A stretch of DNA of 64,000 nucleotides from Escherichia coli (GTDB lineage: Bacteria > Pseudomonadota > Gammaproteobacteria > Enterobacterales > Enterobacteriaceae). The translations under genes and the position numbers were made by a program. The DNA lies in assembly GCF_016026235.1 (NCBI RefSeq), contig NZ_CP065613.1. One strand, given 5' to 3'. This document shows positions 1 to 64,000 of the stretch, one piece after another (the stretch's first letter is position 1; each line of letters begins with the position of its first letter). The notes below the pieces were generated by a model. The model saw nothing but the letters and a program-made list of their open reading frames with translations, made no database searches and was not told where the DNA came from.

Positions 1-38
1 GGCGGGACATTTTCTGTAACAACCACGACCATGCTCAT
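1..38 (-). CDS. cas2: Cas2 (type I-E), 5' fragment only; ATG at 38..36 overlaps the cas1 stop (TGATG); continues beyond the left window edge
   Basis: Minus-strand reading from 38 gives M-S-M-V-V-V-V-T-E-N-V-P, matching the Cas2 N-terminus as I recall it; position immediately downstream of cas1. Confidence 0.5.
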   Translation of the reverse strand, partial: MSMVVVVTENVP

Positions 39-958
39 CAGCCGCGTCCTCGATGACCGCTATCGCCCAGCGTTTCAGGTTCGGGGATGGCTGGCGGTAA
101 CATATCCGGCGCAGGTTGTGGCGGTTCAATTTCACCTGCGGCAAGGACTTCCTCAATTAACGGTATTAATTTGCCCGTTAACTTAGTGCTACGGAAAATA
201 TCACGACAGGCTAATCTGACTTCTTTATCAGGTTCTGCGGGTTGCCTCGCCGCTATTTCAAATGCCTTTGGTACAACCGAATCAAATTTAATGATATCGG
301 CTATGTCATAAACAAATGAAAGCGGTTTGCCACTATGAATAAATCCAATAGCGGGCGCATATCCCGCGGCTAATACTGCCGCTTCAGAAATACCGTACAG
401 ACATGATGTGGCAGCACTGATGCAGCGATTCACAACATCGCCTTTTTCCCAGTCTTTAGGATCGTATTTGCGACCATTCCATTTCACACCATATTGTTTC
501 GCCAGTAATGCATAGGTCTGGCGAACGCGGGATCCCTCAATTCCCCGTAGCTGATCCACTGAACGGCGAGCTGGCGGTGGCTCACGAAAACGTAATTCAT
601 ACATTTTGCGCACCACCTTCAGGCGTAGATCTTCCGTTAAAGCCAGCTTTGCCTGGTAGAGTAATTTATCTGCCCGCGCCCCTCCGGGTTGTCCGGAAGA
701 GTAAACGCGAACGCCCGCTTCACCGACCCAGACCAGCAGTGTTCCCACCGTGGCGGCCAGATGCACCGCCGCGTGGGAAACTCTCGTTCCCGGTTCGAGC
801 ATAATGCAGGCGACCGATCCCACCGGAATGTGCGTGCGGATCCCGGTTTTGTCGATCAGCACGAAAGCGCCGTCCAGTACGTCGATTTGACCGTACTGGA
901 GGAAGATCATAGAGGTGCGATCTTTTAACGGGATCGGACTCAGTGGTACAAACGTCAC
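38..958 (-). CDS. cas1: Cas1 integrase (type I-E), 306 aa, apparently intact
   Basis: ORF-track protein MTFVPLSPIPLKDRTSMIFLQYGQIDVLDGAFVLIDKTGIRTHIPVGSVACIMLEPG... is close to E. coli YgbT/Cas1 (recalled); start overlaps casE stop. Confidence 0.95.
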   Translation of the reverse strand: MTFVPLSPIPLKDRTSMIFLQYGQIDVLDGAFVLIDKTGIRTHIPVGSVACIMLEPGTRVSHAAVHLAATVGTLLVWVGEAGVRVYSSGQPGGARADKLLYQAKLALTEDLRLKVVRKMYELRFREPPPARRSVDQLRGIEGSRVRQTYALLAKQYGVKWNGRKYDPKDWEKGDVVNRCISAATSCLYGISEAAVLAAGYAPAIGFIHSGKPLSFVYDIADIIKFDSVVPKAFEIAARQPAEPDKEVRLACRDIFRSTKLTGKLIPLIEEVLAAGEIEPPQPAPDMLPPAIPEPETLGDSGHRGRG

Positions 959-1605
959 ACCTCTGCTCCGGGTTTGATCAGCATCAGACCACAGCCGAAC
1001 GCGCGGCTTTTGCCATACCCCTGACTGAGACGTTGCAGAAATAACCCGGGATCGGTGACCGTAAGCATCCCCGTATAATCCACGCTACTGAACTGGATCA
1101 GTTGCCAGGAGTTTTCCCGCCGCAGTTGCTGTTGTCGGTAGGCATCAACCGAGGTATCCAGCAGTGTAAAACCGCTTCTCTCCCCCTGCGCTGCCAGCCA
1201 GTCCAGCGCCGCCTGTTGTTGATGCAACCAGACATCACTTCCTTCTGCCTGCCCCCTCATCTGCCGTTTCGCCTCCATCAGCAGATCGTGGCGCTTGCCC
1301 GCTTTACAGATTGTTGGATTCGCCCGCAGGTTGAAACAAAGTTGTTGTCCGGTACGCAGCTCGGGCACAAATGACCGGCATTCGATGGTGAACGTTTCAC
1401 TTTCCGCCGGGCGTTCCTGCGACAGTACAAAAAAGCGAAACGCGCCCTGGAGTTCTTCCCGACGATAAAGAAATTGCCTTTCTTTGCCGCCAGGGAAGAG
1501 ATCCCACAGCCACTGATGCATCACATATTCCCCGCGATCCACCAGATGCAGCAACTGCGCAGGCGAAAGCTGGCCGGTATGTAAGGTTATTCTTGAGAGG
1601 TACAT
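955..1605 (-). CDS. casE: CasE / Cas6e pre-crRNA endoribonuclease, 216 aa, starting MYLSRITL (internal start of the 262-aa track ORF)
   Basis: MYLS start as in K-12 CasE and C-terminal GCGLMLI motif resembling CasE GCGLLSL; AGGAGG-like RBS (rc of ggttcctcc) about 7 nt upstream of ATG at 1605; operon position. Confidence 0.8.
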   Translation of the reverse strand: MYLSRITLHTGQLSPAQLLHLVDRGEYVMHQWLWDLFPGGKERQFLYRREELQGAFRFFVLSQERPAESETFTIECRSFVPELRTGQQLCFNLRANPTICKAGKRHDLLMEAKRQMRGQAEGSDVWLHQQQAALDWLAAQGERSGFTLLDTSVDAYRQQQLRRENSWQLIQFSSVDYTGMLTVTDPGLFLQRLSQGYGKSRAFGCGLMLIKPGAEV

Positions 1606-2333
1606 GGTTCCTCCTTGCTGAGCCACGGCCCCTGATTGACGGTGCGTTCCCCAAACAGCCATTGCTGACGATTTAAAGGAACATCCCGGCGGCGCAATAT
1701 TTTGCTCGCGACCAGGCCGTCGTGCTCCCCTTCCCACCAGCATTCATCCTGAAGTTTCGGGAGTGCGATTTTCAGGTCGTGGAAATGCTCCTGATACTGG
1801 TGATATGCGTTACGTAAAACATCAGACGCGTTGCCTTCGAGCAGTAACGGCGCAAGTGGTAATGCCAGCGGATGACTTTTTCGCCCCAGATAAAGAGGAA
1901 AAACTGGATGGCGTAAACCGCCCTGCAACTGTTCGAGGCTGTAAGGCGCATCGGCTGTTGTTGCCACCGCCACCATCCACCAGGCGTCGGTGTAGTAGTC
2001 GCGCCGGGAGATAATCGCGCTCAGAAGATCAGGGTCGCTCAACTCTTCGCGACGGCTGAAATAACGCGCTTTACGCACCTCTTTTGGCATCTGGATCGTG
2101 TGATAATCCCGTGCCCAGCGCGGGTTACGGCTGGCGCAAACCACCAGTGAATAGTGGCGATTAAACGCGTTTAAGCGTTCGGTATCATCACGCCGAATCC
2201 CTACCCCGGCAGCCAGCAGACCCAGCAATGCTGAGCGCAAAGGCAGTTCATGGGTATGACGCACTTCGCCGGGGGCATCGACGCCCCAGGATGCCATTGG
2301 CCCATGAAGCTGAAAAATCAGATATTGGCTCAT
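1587..2333 (-). CDS. casD: CasD / Cas5e, 248 aa
   Basis: N-terminus MSQYLIFQLHGPMASWG matches the Cas5e motif (K-12 MRSYLILRLAGPMQAWG); overlaps casE by 19 nt. Confidence 0.8.
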   Translation of the reverse strand: MSQYLIFQLHGPMASWGVDAPGEVRHTHELPLRSALLGLLAAGVGIRRDDTERLNAFNRHYSLVVCASRNPRWARDYHTIQMPKEVRKARYFSRREELSDPDLLSAIISRRDYYTDAWWMVAVATTADAPYSLEQLQGGLRHPVFPLYLGRKSHPLALPLAPLLLEGNASDVLRNAYHQYQEHFHDLKIALPKLQDECWWEGEHDGLVASKILRRRDVPLNRQQWLFGERTVNQGPWLSKEEPCTSQE

Positions 2334-2343
2334 AAGCCGCCCC

Positions 2344-3399
2344 TTACGCGCAGATAAAGTCCAGCACGTCCTTCATGCTTCCCTGTTTGTTCATCACGTC
2401 AAAACTTGCGCATTCGGTCTTCTGTTCGTAGACCGTATTCATATTTTCGCGAAGCGTTGTAATACGCTGCACCGCCACGTCTAACTGCCGGGTGCCATTA
2501 ATGGGTTCATAGAAGGCCGCAGCCAGAGAACGCGGTTGATCGGTGCCTTTTTCCGCCAGCGCCCAGGAAGCATAGGCACGGCTGGCAAAGCTATTTTGTT
2601 TACCGGTTGGGGAAACTTTAAGCGCGGCTTCCGTAAAAGCGCGTATGGTCTGATTAGCTAACGCTTCGTCACCGCCGAGGTTTTCTACCAGCAGATCTTT
2701 ATCAATGCAGATATAGGTGTAGAAAAGTGCTGAACCGAATCCGGTTTCTCCGAGATGCCCGGCACCGGCATCTTCAGAGGCCTAGCGCAAATCATCAACG
2801 GCGGTGAAAAAATCATCTTCGACAATCGTTTCACTGACACCAAACGCATGCGCGACCTGGCAGGCGGCTTCAACATTAAACTCAGGTTTATTCGCCAGCA
2901 TACGACCAAACATAGCGATATCTACCGCTATACGGTCTTTACGTAACAACGCGAGATCTTCCTCTTTTGGCGCGCGCTTTTCTTCTGCCAGTTGATGGGC
3001 CAGCGCTTTTACGGCGTCAAATTCTGCCGGGCTGATATGAACTAATTGTTCAGTTTCGGCGTTAGTGAGCGGATCTTTTGGTTTTTTGTCGTTTTTAGCT
3101 TTCCCAAGATAATCCGCAATTTTTGCCGCCCATTCGATGGCTTTTTTCTCTTCGATGCCTTTCTCAATCAGGATAGTTGCCGCCTCACGCGCAATTCGCC
3201 CACTGCGAATACCAATATGGCCCGCCAGTGCCTGTTCAAAAAGTGCAGAAGTGCGCCACGCACGTTTCAGACTTTGTGAGGAAACGCGCAGACGCGTTGC
3301 ACCACCCAGTACCACAGTTTTTGGCGCACCAGTATCATCACGGTTAAGGTTGGCAGCAGGGTAAGCGGTTAACAAATGAAGCTGAATAAATGTTGTCAT
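2344..3399 (-). pseudogene. casC: CasC / Cas7e with an in-frame TAG at 2784..2782 (codon 206 of 351)
   Basis: Track ORF 2782..3399 ends ...FTAVDDLR then TAG; same frame continues ASEDAGAGHLGETGFGSALFYTYICIDKDLLVENLGG... to TAA at 2346..2344; both halves align to one Cas7e (K-12 ...FTAVDDLQEQGSAHLG...NLAQLQENLGG). Confidence 0.85.
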
Positions 3400-3413
3400 G
3401 AGATAGTCCTTTA

Positions 3414-3950
3414 TTAATTTTGTTCGTTATCGGCGTCGCCAGCCTGGTAATATTCCAGTGCCCAGCGGATACGGATAAATTCGGTTGGCCGCTGCTGGCG
3501 GCGGTGATGATTGAGCAGGTCGTCGCTCTCCTGGCACCAGCGGAAAATATCTTCTGCCAAAGAGATAAGATTGACGGAACCGTTTAATAATTTGACCGCG
3601 CGACGTAACTGACGCAGTAAATCATCCGGCGTTTTTACTGCCGACAGGCGAGTAAAACGCCCCTCCGACATTACCGCCGCCAGCTGCGCGGCAAAAGGCT
3701 GCCGTTCATCAATGGCTTTTACATTGGCGCTAACTGCGGCGACCAGCGCCAGTGCGGTAAAACGCCACTCTTGTGCTTCAATTTTCCACAAAGTGTGGGT
3801 CTGCATCAGCAGAGAACGAAACCCTTCTGACAAGCAAACATCATTAACCGTTGTGCTACGCCGCAGACTGGCACGATTGCCGCGTTTAGCCTGCAACTCT
3901 TCGTGCCATTTACGCAGCGTGGCTTTGTGCTCCTCTTTTACAATACTCAT
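3414..3950 (-). CDS. casB: CasB / Cse2 small Cascade subunit, 178 aa
   Basis: Size and position between casA and casC in a I-E operon; sequence diverged from K-12 CasB so the call rests mainly on synteny. Confidence 0.7.
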   Translation of the reverse strand: MSIVKEEHKATLRKWHEELQAKRGNRASLRRSTTVNDVCLSEGFRSLLMQTHTLWKIEAQEWRFTALALVAAVSANVKAIDERQPFAAQLAAVMSEGRFTRLSAVKTPDDLLRQLRRAVKLLNGSVNLISLAEDIFRWCQESDDLLNHHRRQQRPTEFIRIRWALEYYQAGDADNEQN

Positions 3951-5509
3951 TCAGCAGCCTCCTGCTTTTTCTCCCTGGCGGCGTTAGCATTTTGCTTCTC
4001 CGCTGATGTTGTAAAATATTTCTTGCGTGCGGTCATGACGCGTTCCAAATCAACGGGCTCATATGGATTGGTAAAGACACGATCGTCAAAATCCTGACGC
4101 GCGAATAACCACATTTCCTTTTGCCATTTACTGAGTAATTCGTCCGGATCCTGACCTTCTTCAATTTTGCGCACTAATCTCAGGAATCGATGCTGAGTTT
4201 TGTTCCAGAAGTCGATATCCACAAAACTAAAATCACCCCTTGCACCTTTTGGATCGGAGAACCATGCTTCTTTCAATGCACTCCGTAACAGACTTAGAAT
4301 CCGTGAAGCTGTTTGCGCAGCCAGCCGCAGCTTCGGTATCTGACCTTCTTTTTTATCGAGCAGCAGCGGGAAATGGTGTTCGTACCAACAGCGCGCTTTC
4401 ATGTTGTCGAAATCATAGCCAAATCCCCACAGGCCCACTTTTGCCTGCTTGAGACTGCTGGCATTGAAGAGTTTCACCACCAGCGCGGGAAGTTCCGTAT
4501 TGTTTTCTGATTTACCCGTTTCGATAAGGCCTAACCAGTCACGCCAGATTAAACCGCCCGGTTGTGGTTTAACGGAGTAAAACTCGCCACCCTCTTTAAG
4601 TGGTACACGGTAAGGCGTTAAGGGATGCTGCCACATGGCATAATTCGCACCGTAATTTTTGGTCGTCATCAGGCTCAGGAGCGCGTCGCTCTGCTCACCG
4701 CAAATATCGCAGTTGCCGACTGTCGTGGTATTAAAATCAATACGAATACGGCGAGGCATTCCCCAGTACGCCTGGAGTTTATTGACCTGCTCATCGGTTA
4801 CCACCGCACCGGCCAGTTCGCTGGTGCGCGTCGGGCCAAGCCAGGGGAAAACCAGATCGTCAAATTTTTTGGGTAGCGGTAAATCGGCTTCATCCTGCGG
4901 CATGACATTGATCCACAGTTTGCGCCACAAGGGAGTTTGTTGATTACCCTGATATTCCTGTAATTCAATCAGAGTGGTCATCGGCCCACCGCCGCGTAAA
5001 CCGGTGCGGTAGCCTTTGCCACCTGACGGCGCATTCAACTGTAGGGAGAACAGAGCTAACGCAGAACAATGTGGGCACAGGTATTCCGTTACACCACGCT
5101 TGATAAAGTGGTCTTTATTAAACTTCGTTGTTTGAGCGCCGGGAATCTCAGGCAGTAGCGAAGCGACCGGAACTTTATCTCCGGTGAGCGCCTCGAAATC
5201 CTGCATAAATGAAGGGGAATCTGGCCCAAACTGGAAAGCATGTTCTAATGACAGCAATGCTTCCCGTAGCTTTTCAGCTTCCAGTCCGTCTTCCCAGATA
5301 TCATCCCAACGACGATGATCTTTTGGCGCGAAGCTGGTTTGTAGTAGCCCCAGCAAAAACTGCCATACCGCACCCTGGAGATCTGCCCGCGGCGCAGAAA
5401 TATCGACAACATTTTCATCCGCCAGATCGACTGGCGCCAGTTTGCCTGTCGTTCCGTCTTTAAAACGAACGGGCAACCACGGGGTTGTCAGAAGTGAAAA
5501 CGAGTTCAT
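3947..5509 (-). CDS. casA: CasA / Cse1 (Cas8e) large Cascade subunit, about 520 aa; start taken at MNSFSLL (ATG 5509..5507) rather than the track start at 5578
   Basis: N-terminus MNSFSLLTTPWLPVR parallels K-12 CasA MNLLIDNWIPVR; GAGAGG RBS-like motif 6 nt upstream; alternative start MRMNSF at 5515. Confidence 0.8.
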   Translation of the reverse strand: MNSFSLLTTPWLPVRFKDGTTGKLAPVDLADENVVDISAPRADLQGAVWQFLLGLLQTSFAPKDHRRWDDIWEDGLEAEKLREALLSLEHAFQFGPDSPSFMQDFEALTGDKVPVASLLPEIPGAQTTKFNKDHFIKRGVTEYLCPHCSALALFSLQLNAPSGGKGYRTGLRGGGPMTTLIELQEYQGNQQTPLWRKLWINVMPQDEADLPLPKKFDDLVFPWLGPTRTSELAGAVVTDEQVNKLQAYWGMPRRIRIDFNTTTVGNCDICGEQSDALLSLMTTKNYGANYAMWQHPLTPYRVPLKEGGEFYSVKPQPGGLIWRDWLGLIETGKSENNTELPALVVKLFNASSLKQAKVGLWGFGYDFDNMKARCWYEHHFPLLLDKKEGQIPKLRLAAQTASRILSLLRSALKEAWFSDPKGARGDFSFVDIDFWNKTQHRFLRLVRKIEEGQDPDELLSKWQKEMWLFARQDFDDRVFTNPYEPVDLERVMTARKKYFTTSAEKQNANAAREKKQEAAE

Positions 5510-5606: not shown

Positions 5607-8295
5607 TCAACCAACCTTGCCAATCAATCCTTCCGTAGCCGAATACCCGCAACTTTCGTCATCGTTGACTAAAATCACGTTTGCCATCTCCGGATCTTGT
5701 CGCTGTTCAATGCACCACAGCCTGAACGCCTCTCCCTCCAGTAAAGAAAACTCATCCCGATGTTTTTTCCACCAGCTTCGGCGCACTCTGACAACGCTCA
5801 TTTCCCATGCGTGAGCACCGGTGGCATAAGGCTTCACCACACCGTCAATACAGGTAGCCAGCCACAGGGAAACAGACTCCTCAGCCAGACGTGTCGACAG
5901 TTTTTCTGGGAGGTAATCGTTGATATTGGCGGCATAGCCGGGCCTGAAGTTCAGCACAAACTTTTTAGCCATTGCGCGATCACAGTAATATTTGCCCACT
6001 TGCTCCTGCTCGCTGCGGGAAAATCCTTCCGGCATTACCACGTCCTCACCGTAGACGGATTCAATAAGAAGCCGGGCTGCGTGTGGCATCTGAATAGCGC
6101 CTTGCCCACGCAGCACACGCTGCGTCAGCCAGATTCGCCCATGATCGGGGTAGACAAATGCACTGTTACGCATCGCACTGCCAAACCATTCATCACCCGG
6201 AGAGTCGTCCCAGACGGGTGCCAGAATCAGCAATTCAGGAGGGGAACGCTCGTCTTTTCCGTCACGCTTTAACTGACCATTAATATCGCGAATATGCCGC
6301 TGTAATCGCCCCGCTCGCTGGATTAGCAAATCAATGGGGGCCAGGTCGGAGATCATTTCGTCCATATCGCAATCAACGCTCTGCTCCAATACCTGAGTGC
6401 TAATAAGGACTTTTCCGGCACGCTGTGAGCTACCTTCTTTACCAAAGCGTGCCAGCGTTTCCGTTTCAATTCGCTGGCGATCGCTAAAAGCAAAGCGGCT
6501 ATGAAAAAGTGAAAGGCTGGAAGCAGGAATGACGCCGCGGGCAAGCAGCTGACGATAAACCTTAATAGCGTCATCGACAGAATTCCGGATCCAGGCGATG
6601 CATTTCCCCTGACTCACCGCCGATTCGATACGCGCAATACACTCTTGTTCGCTATGAAGCCAACCCACGCTCACGCTACGCTCAACGTCTTTGCGCGTCG
6701 CTACCCGGTGTGAATTCACATTGGATTTCGTAACGTGCGTCAGCCAGGGGTAATCATCCTTTTCAAGGAACGGAGCTTCTTGCTGGCCCTCTGTACCCCG
6801 CGCAAAGGCGGCGACGAGTTTGTCGCGCTGCTGTTGGGATAACGTAGCAGAAAGCAAAATGACGCTGTTTCCACCACGCGCCTGCCGCTCGATCAGCCCT
6901 TCAAGAATGCATGACATGTAAGCGTCACAGGCGTGGATCTCATCAGCCAGCAGGATTTTGTTACTCAGCCCCAGAAGCCGCAGATTATTATGTTTGAACG
7001 GCATCACCGCCATCATCGCCTGATCCAGCGTGCCGACGCCAATTTCAGCCAGTAAAGCCTTCTTGTTACTGTCGGCAAACCAGGCTGCACATCCTTGACT
7101 GAACGCTTGTTCATCCGGTTCTTCTGACCCGACTAAATCACCGGACCAGAGTGATTCATTAAAGCGGTCCATTAATGTACGGGCGCTGTGTGCCAGCACC
7201 AGGCTGGGGCGGGATTCTGGCGAATAGAAAGAAAGCCAGGTTTTGACCAGCCGATCGTACATGGCATCGGCCGTTGCCATTGTTGGCAGGCCAAAGCGCT
7301 TTACCCGCAGCCATCAACCTGTGCGCCAGGATAAGCGCCGCTTCTGTTTTACCTGCGCCAGTCACATCTTCCAGAATAAATAACTGTGGCCCTGGCTGGC
7401 TGATATCCAGATCCAGTACCTTTTGCTGTAATGGTGTCGAGTGCTCAATAAAAGGAAACAGCGTATTAATTCCGGTGAAAGGTGCGGTTTCTGCTTTTGG
7501 AGGAAAGACGGTTAAGGCGTTTTGTGCCTGAACTAAAGTTTTCTGCCAGTAATCTTTAATATTCATTGTCTGTGCGACGCGTGGAAAAAATCGCGTTGAC
7601 GAACCCGTCCAGTCTGCGAGTACGACTGTTGCAGAGATATACCAGGAAAGTTGTTTTAAAAGTTCAACGCCCTCGTCATCATCCCAGAATGTGGGAATCT
7701 CTATGAGCGGAAACAGTGCCTTGATTGCAAGGAGAAAATCTCGCGCGGCAGCTTTGTCTTCAGGCAGAAAATTATCCAGCTCATCAATACGGTCAGGTGG
7801 TCGACCATGATGCCCGGTAGTTATGGACATCCACATCTCTATTACACGTGTAAGTTTACGAGAAGAGAGTGAAGATGAAGGAAGCAACTCCTCACATTCA
7901 CTTAAATAATAATTCCACAGCCAGTAACCCAGCGTTGAATGAGAGATCTTTTCGTAATTCTTTCTGGAACCTTCCGGAATCTTGAGTTCAGGGGCCAGGT
8001 AAAGTTGCTGAAAAGAGCGGGCAAATTTTCCAATATCGTGCCAGCACAGCAACCAGGCGAAAAATTGAGCCGCCTGTTCCTTGTCAGAAATCCCTAATTG
8101 ACGAAAATAATCAGCCAGCCCGAAGCAATTTCTTTTAACCATTAAATAGCCCATCGCGGCTACATCCAGCGAATGCCAGCAAAGAAGGTGATAGTCGTCG
8201 CCCCCGTCTTTCTCGCCGCGTCGGGTTTTTCCCCAGAAATCAAAAAAAGTCACAATATTTTTATCCTTCAGTAAACTTAAAGGATATTTACGCAT
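5607..8295 (-). pseudogene. cas3: Cas3 HD-nuclease/helicase split by a frameshift into two overlapping ORFs (7159..8295 and 5607..7280)
   Basis: N-terminal ORF has HD motif (WHDIGKF) and Walker A (VTGAGKTEAAL); C-terminal ORF has DExH (LLADEIHACD); frames switch between about 7280 and 7316 (LMAAGKA... in one frame, ...FGLPTMATADAM in the other). Confidence 0.85.
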
Positions 8296-8476
8296 ATATT
8301 AAAAATTATCTGTGATATATATCAGCCAATAAAACATTTATATTGTGAATAAATTTATGATTTTCATTTGAAATTCATAATAATAAATAGAGACAATATA
8401 TTCACATAAAAAATATAAATTTAAAAAAGGGTGCAGGAGACCAAACCATCACAATTCAATACGCGGGGTTTTACCC
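8296..8476 (-). promoter_or_regulatory. Very AT-rich region upstream of cas3; probable promoter / nucleoid-protein-bound region
   Basis: About 180 bp of strongly AT-biased sequence directly upstream of the cas3 start; promoter function inferred from position only. Confidence 0.3.
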
Positions 8477-9770
8477 CTGAGGGATCCCCAGAAAATTTAG
8501 TAAACCATTATCATATTGGTATACCGTTGCTGTAGAACTTTCAGCCCTGCGTCAAGTGACAGTGTGTTTAGTATGAGTGGAGAATGTCGAATCACATTCT
8601 CCGCCAGTTTTAATAACGAGATGACTCGCCTGTGCTTCACTGTATTTGCCTGATATTTATGATGTATCCCTTTGTTTTCCAGGCTGAAACCGCTTAACCA
8701 CATAATGATACTGGCTAATGTTGCGATCAGACTCAATACCGTGACCCGCCCGGATGAATGACTGGCACCAAACCGTAGTCCAAATCCCCAGCGAGGATTT
8801 TTTTCATCCCTGAAATTTTGCTCAATTTGCATTCTACGGCTGTATAATTTCATTACCTGTTTTGGCGAGAACTCAGTACTGTTTGTGAAAATAAACCATG
8901 GTGATTTCCCGGCAGTACGAGCTTTAGCCGTCACCGATGGTCTGGTTGCTCTTTCCTTCGAGCGTTTAAATCTACGACCTTTAGGCTTACTTTTATAAAG
9001 ATAAAAATGCCCTTCATGTTGTGCATTTTTATCTCGACCCAGCAGGCCTTCACCTAAATAAATTGCTGTCGTTGATGCTTTTGTGCCTGAGTCCGACACC
9101 TTTTCCCAGCCATTACCAACATTGTAATAATGATTGCCCAGTACCCGGCAAATATAGGTCCAGCCACGGGAGCGGAGCTGTTGGAACCATCGCCCCTGAA
9201 AACCGGCATCTGTAATAACAATGACATCAGTCCCGGGGGAAAAGCACTCAGCAAGCGATTCCAGAAAACGCTCATGTACATCTGCATTCGCTGTCTGTGA
9301 TGATGGAACGACACAACTCATCAACGGTAAAGAACGCCCGTCACATGCCAGGCTTGCCCGCAAAAGCTGAAAACGAGAGGCATGATAAGCACTCCAGTCA
9401 ATGAGTATCACAACACGAGACATTCCCCGCGTAATCTTTTGGGTAATTCGCTGAAAAATGGTGGAAACCTCATTTTGCAAATGTCGATTCCCCAACAGTC
9501 GATCCACCCGCTTTATTTTGTTTTTAACTGATGCCGTACCGGTTAAATGACGCCCGATACTGGTAAGTGTGAGGGAAGCGCCATTTATTACAGCATTAGT
9601 TGCGTCAATCAGTGATTTTTGACGGTAAAGATGCAAAGGGGCCAGTATGTTGTTAAGGAAATTTTGGCATAATGAACGTGCAGGCATAGTGGTGATCTCC
9701 TTGAAATTGTTAGCACAATCAATTAGATCACATCTCACTATGCCTGTCTTGTTTTCTGGGGATTCCTCAG
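8477..9770 (-). mobile_element. IS4-family, IS10-like insertion sequence (about 1.29 kb); boundaries approximate
   Basis: Imperfect terminal inverted repeats CTGAGGGATCCCC (8477..) and GGGGATTCCTCAG (..9770) resemble IS10 ends; encloses an IS10-like transposase; the 9-bp flanks do not match (no target-site duplication). Confidence 0.75.
8497..9687 (-). CDS. IS10-like DDE transposase, 396 aa (start at MPARSL, inside the IS)
   Basis: Segments ...KIKRVDRLLGNRHL... and ...YSRRMQIEQNFRDEKNP...KYQANTV... closely parallel the IS10 transposase (KRIDRLLGNRHL, YSKRMQIEETFRDLKSP, HFQANTV). Confidence 0.85.
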   Translation of the reverse strand: MPARSLCQNFLNNILAPLHLYRQKSLIDATNAVINGASLTLTSIGRHLTGTASVKNKIKRVDRLLGNRHLQNEVSTIFQRITQKITRGMSRVVILIDWSAYHASRFQLLRASLACDGRSLPLMSCVVPSSQTANADVHERFLESLAECFSPGTDVIVITDAGFQGRWFQQLRSRGWTYICRVLGNHYYNVGNGWEKVSDSGTKASTTAIYLGEGLLGRDKNAQHEGHFYLYKSKPKGRRFKRSKERATRPSVTAKARTAGKSPWFIFTNSTEFSPKQVMKLYSRRMQIEQNFRDEKNPRWGFGLRFGASHSSGRVTVLSLIATLASIIMWLSGFSLENKGIHHKYQANTVKHRRVISLLKLAENVIRHSPLILNTLSLDAGLKVLQQRYTNMIMVY

Positions 9771-9990
9771 GGGCGATCCTCCAGTTCAAATATAAGGTCA
9801 GAACCTGCATGGTTTATATCAGACATCCCTTCACTCCTTTTAAAGTAAATTTGATCATCTGAATTAGTAAAATAAATTCCCACGAATTTGGGGCGCAGGA
9901 CGCCTTGAGAACGGCTTATCTCATTTTCGCAGTCACTATTTAGTCATCGTTCAAACAGAGAAACAGGCCGCCGAAGCGGCCATTTATTAT

Positions 9991-34938: not shown

Positions 34939-35012
34939 GCGGGCGTAGTTCAATGGTAGAACGAGAGCTTCCCAAGCTCTATACGAGGGTTCGATTCCCT
35001 TCGCCCGCTCCA
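34939..35012 (+). tRNA. glyU: tRNA-Gly (anticodon CCC)
   Basis: 74-nt GCGGGCGTAGTTCAATGGTAGAACGAGAGCTTCCCAAGCTCTATACGAGGGTTCGATTCCCTTCGCCCGCTCCA with 7-bp acceptor stem, CCC anticodon loop, T-loop GGTTCGATTCC and 3' CCA. Confidence 0.9.
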
Positions 35013-35245: not shown

Positions 35246-35301
35246 ATGAAAGGGAAATCTGCATTAACTCTTCTGCTCGCTGGTATATTTTCGTGCGGCA
35301 C
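35246..35301 (+). pseudogene. 5' fragment (18 codons) of an ORF with a signal-peptide-like N-terminus, cut by the IS1 left end
   Basis: ATG at 35246 gives MKGKSALTLLLAGIFSCG..., then the IS1 inverted repeat begins at 35302; identity not recognised. Confidence 0.3.
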
Positions 35302-35356
35302 GGTGATGCTGCCAACTTACTGATTTAGTGTATGATGGTGTTTTTGAGGTGCTCCA

Positions 35357-35632
35357 GTGGCTTCTGTTTCTATCAGCTGTCCCTCCTGTTCAGCTACTGA
35401 CGGGGTGGTGCGTAACGGCAAAAGCACCGCCGGACATCAGCGCTATCTCTGCTCTCACTGCCGTAAAACATGGCAACTGCAGTTCACTTACACCGCTTCT
35501 CAACCCGGTACGCACCAGAAAATCATTGATATGGCCATGAATGGCGTTGGATGCCGGGCAACTGCCCGCATTATGGGCGTTGGCCTCAACACGATTTTAC
35601 GTCACTTAAAAAACTCAGGCCGCAGTCGGTAA
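35357..35632 (+). CDS. insA: IS1 InsA, 91 aa
   Basis: Protein [43 protein letters not shown]... is the IS1 InsA sequence. Confidence 0.9.
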
Positions 35633-36054
35633 CCTCGCGCATACAGCCGGGCAGTGACGTCATCGTCTGCGCGGAAATGGACGAACAGTGGGGCTATGTC
35701 GGGGCTAAATCGCGCCAGCGCTGGCTGTTTTACGCGTATGACAGTCTCCGGAAGACGGTTGTTGCGCACGTATTCGGTGAACGCACTATGGCGACGCTGG
35801 GGCGTCTTATGAGCCTGCTGTCACCCTTTGACGTGGTGATATGGATGACGGATGGCTGGCCGCTGTATGAATCCCGCCTGAAGGGAAAGCTGCACGTAAT
35901 CAGCAAGCGATATACGCAGCGAATTGAGCGGCATAACCTGAATCTGAGGCAGCACCTGGCACGGCTGGGACGGAAGTCGCTGTCGTTCTCAAAATCGGTG
36001 GAGCTGCATGACAAAGTCATCGGGCATTATCTGAACATAAAACACTATCAATAA
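35551..36054 (+). CDS. insB: IS1 InsB reading frame (expressed as InsAB' by frameshifting)
   Basis: 167-aa ORF overlapping insA, typical IS1 organisation. Confidence 0.85.
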
Positions 36055-36069
36055 GTTGGAGTCATTACC

Positions 36070-49161: not shown

Positions 49162-50587
49162 TAATGCCAGTCAGTTAAGCAACTGACTGGCTCTTTTTCG
49201 GGGCTGTGGGGTATTTCCAGGGCCTCTCCTTTACCACTCTCGGGAAGGCCCTTCCCCTTCTCGTCGGTAATTTCACAAGTTGTCCCATACTTGCAAGATC
49301 GCGCATCAGCTCCGGTATACGTCCCGGTGAAGCGCCCTGCAATGTCATCAGCATTCTCATCACCATTCCGCATGATTCTGAGAAACTCAGTTGATTCGGC
49401 CAGTAACCTTTCAGATGTTCCGCCATTTTAATCATCTGATATCTCACCAGATTATAAGCCAGTAAGACACCCCACAGCTCTTGCTCCACAAGCTCCGGCT
49501 TTTTACTTCTCAGCGTCAGCCTGCTCAGTTGCATCGTCTGTTTTATCTCCCTGTATCCCAGTTCGATTTCCCAGCGATGACTGTACAGATCCGCCATTTC
49601 TCCTCCGGGGAAGCGCATGGCGTCCGTCATCGACGTCAGCAGATGGCAGACTTTTCCTTTGCGCGTCACGGTCAGCAGGCGGGCTGTCACTTCATTTCCC
49701 AGTCCCGGCCACTTTTTTCGTGCCTGCGGGCTGGTTTTCAGCTTCACCAGATGATCGCCTTTACCCAGTTTTCTGAGCTCTTCATATTGCGCTCCCTTTC
49801 TGAGAGGTATCATCCAGTGGCGGTGTTCTCCCGCCAGGCTCCAGGCATTTAACAGTCCCAGTGAGTAATAACCTTTATCCATTAACGTCAGAGTGTTATC
49901 GCCGGTTTGTTCTATAAGTTGCTCAGCAAGCTCATTTTCGCTGTTCTTCATCGTGCCGAAGGCTGCAGCCGTCAGCAGATGGCTGGTCAGTTCCATCTGG
50001 CAGACCATTTTGACCTGCGGGTAGAGCGCCGGGTTCCCGGCATGTGTCTGGCGGGGGAAGGCTGCATCGTTCTCTGGTGTATCCGGTGTGCGCCAGAACA
50101 CACCATCGATGGCCAGCAGGGTCAGGCCGCACCAGTGCGGATGCGGCGTGGCGTTATGCCAGAGCTGCGCTGTTTTCGTGAACACGCGGCGGACAGCCTC
50201 ACTTCCCAGGCGCTGGCGGGCCTGAATAACGGCACTGGGGGCAACGAAGGGGCGATTGCCCGGCAGCATGATGTCCAGGCGATTCACAATCTGGTGAAGA
50301 GGTTCTTTACGCTCAAGCGCCATGCCAACAATACACCAGACCATCATTTCGAGGGGAAGACGGCGCTTGCGTAGCGTTACAGTACCTGATTCGGCAAGGC
50401 AACGAGAGATGAGTTCGGGGTCGAGGTAATCCCCCAGAGAAGTCAGTGGGTTACGCAGAGAATCGTAACGGGATACCAGATCAAGAGCCTGTCCAATGTG
50501 CATAAAAAAATCCGGAAACAAGTGAGCGTTTCCGGATTCTTACACAGCCACTGGATCGGTCAACTGATCCTTAACTGATCGGCATTA
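49162..50587 (-). mobile_element. IS4 (1426 bp)
   Basis: Terminal inverted repeats TAATGCCAGTCAGTTAAG (left) and CTTAACTGATCGGCATTA (right); encodes the IS4 transposase; flanked by a 13-bp direct repeat. Confidence 0.9.
49175..50503 (-). CDS. insG: IS4 transposase InsG, 442 aa (start [10 protein letters not shown])
   Basis: Sequence recognised as IS4 InsG. Confidence 0.9.
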
Positions 50588-63216: not shown

Positions 63217-64000
63217 ATGCCCCGCAGCACCTGGTTCAAAGCATTATTGTTGTTAGTTGCCCTTTGGGCACCCTTAAGTCAGGCAGAAACGGGATGGCAG
63301 CCGATTCAGGAAACCATCCGTAAAAGTGATAAAGATAACCGCCAGTATCAGGCTATACGTCTGGATAACGGTATGGTGGTCTTGCTGGTTTCTGATCCGC
63401 AGGCAGTTAAATCGCTATCGGCGCTGGTGGTGCCCGTTGGGTCGCTGGAAGATCCCGAGGCGTACCAGGGGCTGGCACATTACCTTGAACATATGAGTCT
63501 GATGGGGTCGAAAAAGTACCCGCAGGCTGACAGTCTGGCCGAATATCTCAAAATGCACGGCGGTAGTCACAATGCCAGCACTGCGCCGTATCGCACGGCT
63601 TTCTATCTGGAAGTTGAGAACGACGCCTTGCCCGGTGCGGTAGACCGCCTGGCCGATGCTATTGCAGAACCCTTGCTCGACAAGAAATACGCCGAACGTG
63701 AGCGTAATGCAGTGAACGCTGAATTAACCATGGCGCGTACGCGTGACGGGATGCGCATGGCACAGGTCAGCGCAGAAACCATTAACCCGGCACACCCCGG
63801 TTCAAAGTTTTCTGGTGGTAACCTCGAAACTTTAAGCGACAAACCTGGTAATCCGGTGCAGCAGGCGCTGAAAGATTTCCACGAGAAGTACTATTCCGCC
63901 AATTTGATGAAGGCGGTTATTTACAGTAATAAACCGCTGCCGGAGTTGGCAAAAATGGCGGCGGACACCTTTGGTCGCGTGCCGAACAAAGAGAGCAAAA
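63217..64000 (+). CDS. ptrA: Protease III (pitrilysin), N-terminal part; runs off the right window edge
   Basis: ATG at 63217 gives MPRSTWFKALLLLVALWAPLSQA signal peptide and the inverted zinc motif HYLEH of M16 peptidases. Confidence 0.9.
   Translation, partial: MPRSTWFKALLLLVALWAPLSQAETGWQPIQETIRKSDKDNRQYQAIRLDNGMVVLLVSDPQAVKSLSALVVPVGSLEDPEAYQGLAHYLEHMSLMGSKKYPQADSLAEYLKMHGGSHNASTAPYRTAFYLEVENDALPGAVDRLADAIAEPLLDKKYAERERNAVNAELTMARTRDGMRMAQVSAETINPAHPGSKFSGGNLETLSDKPGNPVQQALKDFHEKYYSANLMKAVIYSNKPLPELAKMAADTFGRVPNKESK

Follow-up and report, generated by a model that had tools for sequence, protein, structure and literature searches.

An amber codon at a former Dcm site in cas7e of a decaying type I-E CRISPR-Cas locus of Escherichia coli

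Type I-E Cas7e, or CasC (TIGR01869, PF09344), has the solved homologs 9uer_E, 5u07_D and 4qyz_D. Residues 190-223 of Cas7 form a thumb that is followed by the C-terminal part of the palm, and six Cas7 subunits interlock by thumb-palm contacts into the backbone of Cascade (PMC5965380). In E. coli the cas-E genes are dispensable and often inactivated (Almendros et al. 2014, PMC3903273), and the I-E system is silenced by H-NS (PMC3737337).

The cas7e gene studied here lies in the window, by which we mean the whole stretch of 64,000 nucleotides of E. coli DNA that was analyzed. It matches the type I-E Cas7e family in sequence, operon order and locus; however, while the members of this family have an open frame, the gene of the window is closed at codon 206. 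The lesions of the window are a cas7e nonsense codon, a cas3 frameshift and an insertion sequence (IS) beside cas3. They affect the same locus and are of the same kinds as the IS elements and point mutations by which cas-E is known to decay in E. coli and Shigella (PMC3903273), and they add nothing essential to these. In the clade to which the window belongs, the amber codon is accompanied by a deletion of 11 bp and by an inversion mediated by IS copies.

The interrupted cas7e gene

The reading frame of cas7e begins with an ATG at position 3399, reads ...EDDFFTAVDDLR (tail ...FFTAVDDLR) and then meets TAG at 2784..2782. Past this codon the frame stays open for 145 codons (ASEDAGAGHLGETGFGSALFYTY...) until TAA at 2346..2344. 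All of these coordinates had been given in an earlier note on this DNA, and they proved correct when the strand was read again. The parts of the gene are as follows.

2344..3399, minus strand: cas7e (casC/cse4) pseudogene, 351 codons plus stop; 99.8% identity to annotated intact cas7e, both halves matching TIGR01869
2782..2784, minus strand: amber codon TAG, codon 206, from CAG (Gln), with the changed base at window position 2784
2782..3399, minus strand: the sole translatable ORF, encoding 205 aa from the N-terminal side of Cas7e (N-terminal palm, fingers, thumb base; boundaries by alignment with K-12 CasC and from PMC5965380)
2347..2781, minus strand: C-terminal remnant of 145 codons, untranslated (TIGR01869 match; scan for in-frame start codons)

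Against the NCBIfam profile TIGR01869 (casC_Cse4), the 205-aa N-terminal piece matched positions 1-206 with 280.8 bits (cut-off 178.05), and PF09344 is recorded for this product. The 145-aa downstream piece matched positions 208-325 (E 3.6e-44, 152 bits). As the two pieces cover adjoining stretches of the profile, they are contiguous halves of one Cas7e, and the proposal of the earlier note that the segment after the TAG is the C-terminal half of the protein is borne out. In comparison with intact annotated E. coli alleles, for example that of strain ES5, the gene of the window was 99.8% identical over 1056 bp, and its two mismatches were the C-to-T change that makes CAG into TAG and one synonymous-type SNP. 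The lesion is therefore one nonsense codon in an otherwise full-length gene, as the same note had claimed. When the codon was repaired in silico, the predicted Cas7e gave a 630-bit match to PDB 9uer_E, a solved chain nearly identical to it; K-12 CasC (4qyz_D) was only a distant relative (E 4e-28).

Codon 206 aligns with approximately residue 208 of K-12 CasC and lies inside the thumb, so that the 205-aa product keeps the N-terminal 58% of the protein and lacks the tip of the thumb and the C-terminal part of the palm. Functional Cas7e has an uninterrupted palm-fingers-thumb frame; in the window this frame is broken. The first canonical in-frame start past the TAG is a GTG at codon 308 (window 2478), with none for 102 codons, and the C-terminal 145 residues therefore cannot be made separately. 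Separate translation of this half was rejected as a candidate, there being no in-frame ATG, GTG or TTG until codon 308. Gene callers predicted nothing over the C-terminal remnant in two of the fetched loci described below (L003 and L004). Because of the TAG at codon 206 and the lack of a canonical restart before codon 308, the gene is filed as a pseudogene of the Cas7e family, a non-functional member.

As translation breaks off halfway through the thumb and the C-terminal palm half is missing, the six-subunit Cas7 backbone is predicted to be unable to form on the crRNA, and in the absence of this backbone interference and primed adaptation would be lost, the former as the earlier note had expected. 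Judged by the known structures of Cascade, the 205-aa fragment should fail to build the complex. The untranslated stretch of about 450 nt may also lower the expression of cas5e, cas6e, cas1 and cas2 via polarity.

The amber allele in other assemblies and the state of the operon

In the public collection 38 blocks list the exact 205-aa product. Reading them gave at least 24 contigs that encode it, in independent assemblies, and ten loci were fetched, five from NCBI assemblies and five from SRA-derived (Logan) assemblies. TAG stood at codon 206 in all ten loci, and in eight of them cas7e was 100% identical to that of the window. The NCBI assemblies carrying the TAG are GCA_901482675.2, GCA_900449985.1, GCA_002461615.1, GCA_902503985.1 and GCA_001907535.1; over 13,399 bp the window has 100% identity to contig UGFA01000002.1 of E. 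coli GCA_900449985.1 (L004). The carriers differed among themselves in cas3, in SNPs and in the length of the CRISPR array and are therefore independent isolates of one clade, which is very young (no more than 5 SNPs in 8.5 kb). An exact 33-mer search of 5,426 complete E. coli genomes with the TAG context of the window (621C) gave zero matches, so that the window's own allele occurs only in draft and SRA assemblies, and the 621T variant of this 33-mer was found in 3 records of the same genomes, representing 2 strains. Among the complete-genome records having this cas7e, 3 of 2640 carried the TAG and the remainder did not; the intact alleles that were inspected all had CAG. In the complete RefSeq strains 2017.01.04CC and E1, which have other haplotypes, PGAP annotates cas7e with this lesion as a pseudogene ('internal stop'). 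Literature searches turned up no earlier account of this particular cas7e allele.

The operon has the order cas3-cse1-cse2-cas7-cas5-cas6e-cas1, and the window starts inside cas1e. Both cas2 and the CRISPR array lie past its left end and are present in the identical assembly L004; in relatives the locus adjoins iap/cysH. The type I-E variant is the non-K-12 'E1'/O157:H7-type, and O157:H7 genomes match at about 95%. Besides cas7e, the window contains the following cas genes.

38..958, minus strand: cas1e, intact, 306 aa (gene calls and profile match)
955..1605, minus strand: cas6e/casE, intact, 216 aa (gene calls and profile match)
1587..2333, minus strand: cas5e/casD, intact, 248 aa; downstream of the amber codon, possibly subject to polarity
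3414..3950, minus strand: cse2/casB, intact, 178 aa (gene calls and profile match)
3947..5509, minus strand: cse1/casA, intact, 520 aa (TIGR02547, 606.9 bits; L004 gene calls)
5607..8295, minus strand: cas3 pseudogene, ORFs of 378 aa and 557 aa; 11-bp deletion AGGGTTTGTTT, cas3 nt 1001-1011, window ~7295-7297

The 378-aa ORF of cas3 corresponds to the HD domain and the 557-aa ORF to the helicase. The sister assemblies L003 and L006 have the TAG in cas7e, yet their cas3 is intact (899 aa); the amber codon therefore preceded the 11-bp frameshift in cas3, the order to be expected if the system was already dead. The arrays of the clade (L003, L004 and L006-L008), located between cas2 and iap, contain 2, 5 or 6 spacers, with 5 in L004, and form nested subsets. 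They have the same first and last spacers and differ by internal deletions only. Since the leader-proximal spacer is common to all of them, no acquisition is visible. When the five spacers of the clade were compared with the window, allowing up to 5 mismatches, no self-targeting match was found within it. Decay is under way in the type I-E system of this clade, as is commonplace in E. coli, where I-E is dispensable and silenced by H-NS.

Other cas lesions were seen among relatives. E1 (L014) and 118UI (L016) have a common internal stop in cas1e, and the cas3 gene of E1 holds an IS5; A30 (L017) has an internal stop in cas3. Shortened calls of cse2 or cas5e occurred in several carriers of a nonsense cas7e (relatives including L026, L028, L029, L031 and L032).

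Upstream of cas3 the window has been rearranged around an IS element.

8474..9773, minus strand: IS4-family element (ISEc60/ISSfl1-like), terminal repeats CCCCTGAGGRATC, transposase at 8497..9687

This element precedes the cas3 ATG by 178 bp. At its left junction it agrees with L003 (hok-IS-cas3), at its right one with FDAARGOS_943 (xanQ'-IS-xdhD), and these mixed junctions point to an inversion of about 140 kb, by recombination of two IS copies, that put xdhD beside cas3. Beyond the element and up to about position 64000, the genes xdhD-ygfM-ssnA-ygfK...recC follow in the reverse of the K-12 order. Two further insertions were noted in the window. An IS1 copy at 35301..36069 stands immediately downstream of tRNA-Gly(CCC) (34939..35012), in place of about 9.7 kb that strain KFu022 has there, namely the ETT2 type III secretion remnant, yqeI, yqeH, yqeG and the greater part of yqeF. 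An IS4 transposase gene (49175..50521, minus strand) lies between tas and ygdR; this insertion is also present in strain VR50 and is missing from an otherwise 100%-identical stretch of FDAARGOS_943.

The earlier note had raised the alternative of a sequencing error. With an error of sequencing or assembly the true base would be C, the codon CAG and the gene intact. Single-base differences are indeed the commonest type of error; however, the identical TAG in at least ten loci from independent assemblies excludes this explanation, whose probability we regard as negligible. The same codon is found in five NCBI assemblies and in separate SRA runs assembled by Logan, two more complete RefSeq strains carry it on other haplotypes, and one shared faulty read set is contradicted by the carriers' differing cas3 genes, arrays and SNPs. 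Readthrough of the amber codon that keeps the system working, whether through a natural suppressor tRNA (such as a glnV/supE-like one, restoring Gln) or in a context-dependent manner, is extremely improbable as well, even though a CAG-to-TAG change is of exactly the type that supE-like suppressors correct. Homologs vary at residue 206 (Ala in 9uer_E; Lys or Glu elsewhere), so that a suppressed full-length product would probably work if a suppressor existed; a tRNA scan of the 64-kb window, however, gave a single tRNA-Gly(CCC) and no suppressor. The 145 downstream codons are still free of stops and identical among the carriers, but in a clade as young as this one such conservation weighs little, and the TAG itself is not conserved among orthologs, as its frequency in complete genomes shows. 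With six Cas7 subunits per Cascade a basal level of readthrough would presumably be insufficient, and the later frameshift of cas3 in the same clade is what is expected of a system already dead. Very probably, then, the cas7e gene of the window carries a genuine inherited nonsense mutation, Gln206 to amber, that has made a type I-E backbone gene a pseudogene.

Dcm sites and the recurrence of the stop codon

The earlier note had left the ancestral sense codon at CAG, GAG or AAG, to be settled by alignment with relatives; in the nearest intact alleles (ES5, 720632, 118UI and A30) codon 206 is CAG. At position 2784 the window has A on the plus strand where ES5 has G, i.e., T versus C on the coding strand, a C-to-T transition, and the context of the codon is CGC-CAG-GCC in intact alleles versus CGC-TAG-GCC in the window. 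The change falls within a Dcm site.

2781..2785, minus strand: CTAGG, remnant of a mutated Dcm site (ancestral CCAGG), with the inner C, which is 5-methylated in Dcm sites, changed to T

Most E. coli carry dcm, and in 1978 Coulondre and colleagues reportedly located amber hotspots of lacI at CCAGG. There are only three Dcm sites in cas7e, at nt 540, 615 and 833 of the gene, and all three can yield an amber codon, at codons 181 and 206 on the coding strand and at TGG279 via the opposite strand. CCAGG sites are amber hotspots owing to deamination of 5-methylcytosine to thymine (PMC12606429), which very-short-patch repair by Vsr normally counters (PMC2715241). The methylated inner C of CCAGG at codon 206 would have deaminated spontaneously to give CTAGG, escaping this repair. 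The cas7e amber codon probably arose by deamination at the Dcm site.

The number of different cas7e haplotypes with this TAG is four at the least and may be as high as seven. The haplotypes with TAG at codon 206 differ by 24-50 nt and fall into 7 clusters (single-linkage, no more than 3 nt); around the codon there are 4 distinct contexts within 60 nt on either side and 6 within 150 nt. In three of the four TAG haplotype groups that were compared, that of the window included, there is a CAG twin 1-3 nt away, and intact twins are found for the major backgrounds. Among such pairs, 2017.01.04CC (TAG) differs from 720632 at 1 of 1056 nt, L005 from A30 at 3 nt and the window from ES5 at 2 nt. E1 (TAG) and 118UI (CAG) differ across 13,212 aligned bp by a single base, that in codon 206. 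At codon 181, the other in-frame Dcm site, a CTAGG amber occurs in many public E. coli assemblies and on at least four haplotypes (L020-L028, with cas7e at 1501-2556). Among the ambers outside Dcm sites, codon 118 was found on one haplotype and codon 250 on two. Contigs were also counted by exact look-ups of the predicted truncated products; the counts given below are confounded by clonal sampling and were used qualitatively, and because some exact matches (L047-L049) are ORFs cut at contig ends, with no stop, they overstate nonsense alleles, the rare ones most.

Dcm site, codon 181: 180-aa product, 121 contigs (66 + 55)
Dcm site, codon 206: 205-aa product, 176 contigs
Dcm site, codon 279: 278-aa product, 6 contigs
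Non-Dcm site, codon 118: 117-aa product, 101 contigs
Six other non-Dcm sites: products of 135-310 aa, 0-15 contigs each

Amber codons at the Dcm sites of cas7e were found to recur independently and above those at non-Dcm sites, in a semi-quantitative comparison whose sampling is uncorrected for phylogeny. At the lacI hotspots the change is identical, from C-CAG-G to C-TAG-G at the inner C with an amber codon made, and the recurrence in cas7e, in independent lineages and at both in-frame CCAGG sites, is as the hotspot model expects. The two cases differ in that cas7e was observed in natural populations and lacI in a laboratory mutant collection, and in that the excess of Dcm over non-Dcm sites in cas7e is semi-quantitative only. 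The 8.2-kb cas operon has 27 further Dcm sites, and in 46 loci these showed no significant excess of C>T: 7 of 54 Dcm columns were polymorphic versus 438 of 4209 other columns (13% versus 10.4%, p = 0.5), and singletons made up 4 of 54 versus 119 of 4209 (7.4% versus 2.8%, odds ratio 2.7, p = 0.07).

Instead of arising by repeated mutation, one ancestral TAG tract might have spread between haplotypes by homologous recombination. Such exchange is documented in the Cascade region of E. coli (PMC3903273), L009 has a window-like cas7e inside an operon that is otherwise 5.6% divergent, and some TAG haplotypes have identical flanks within 60 nt on either side. Nevertheless, we consider this very unlikely as the source of the recurrence, as there are four distinct contexts at this distance and the window departs from the others at position 621, 5 nt downstream of its TAG. 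No flanking SNPs of a donor type were seen to have moved along with the TAG, and both the CAG twins of three of the four groups and the single base separating E1 from 118UI in 13.2 kb argue for mutation in place. Another explanation, compatible with the hotspot, is that TAG-206 recurs through positive selection for the loss of Cascade, which might for example end self-targeting or let plasmids and prophages in more easily. Many cas7e nonsense alleles exist, and some are highly sampled, including one outside Dcm sites (117 aa, 101 contigs); several carriers have further cas lesions; and cas-E genes of E. coli are often inactivated by IS elements (PMC3903273). Recurrence at two CCAGG codons, however, is the prediction of a mutation bias, while selection would scatter hits over every knockout site and all Cascade genes; transcriptional silencing by H-NS (PMC3737337) leaves little cost to select against, and the array spacers of the clade have no match within the window. 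We therefore regard selection as an unlikely cause of the recurrence; it may contribute, although it is not needed, and it fails to explain the concentration on CCAGG codons. Deamination at Dcm sites remains the preferred origin of the repeated amber codons.

The region around cas7e has a composite appearance in its own right. In the cas7e-cse2 segment (window ~2000..4000) the window, ES5 (L001) and L009 show 0-2 differences per kb, and in the flanking cas3/cse1 and cas5-cas1 segments the three are 4-6% divergent. By its pattern of divergence, the Cascade region of these three reads as a recombination mosaic like that described by Almendros et al. 2014.

A more far-reaching idea, to which we assign little credence, is that the CCAGG sites at codons 181 and 206 act as a Dcm/Vsr-dependent, bidirectional, high-rate switch, in which deamination of 5-methylcytosine would turn Cascade off and Vsr-biased T:G repair at CTAGG would turn it back on. 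If this were true, E. coli would hold standing on/off variation in CRISPR interference that resembles a contingency locus and is possibly kept by fluctuating selection.

Significance of the cas7e pseudogene

The cas7e pseudogene of the window is real, but there is nothing unusual about it: it exemplifies known biology, probably arose by a textbook mutational mechanism and leaves the understanding of CRISPR biology unchanged. Seen across relatives, the cas lesions give the overall picture of a piecemeal decay of the I-E operon. For the genome from which the window comes, the type I-E CRISPR-Cas system is best annotated as non-functional, since the cas7e and cas3 pseudogenes should, as far as their sequences tell, remove interference; with this predicted loss, the spacers of the genome are not to be read as active immunity. 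For analyses of pseudogenes and of convergence the locus calls for caution, because identical nonsense alleles across lineages need not mean descent or selection. It offers an example from natural populations of a phenomenon known from the laboratory, in which amber codons at Dcm sites repeatedly knock out one dispensable gene.
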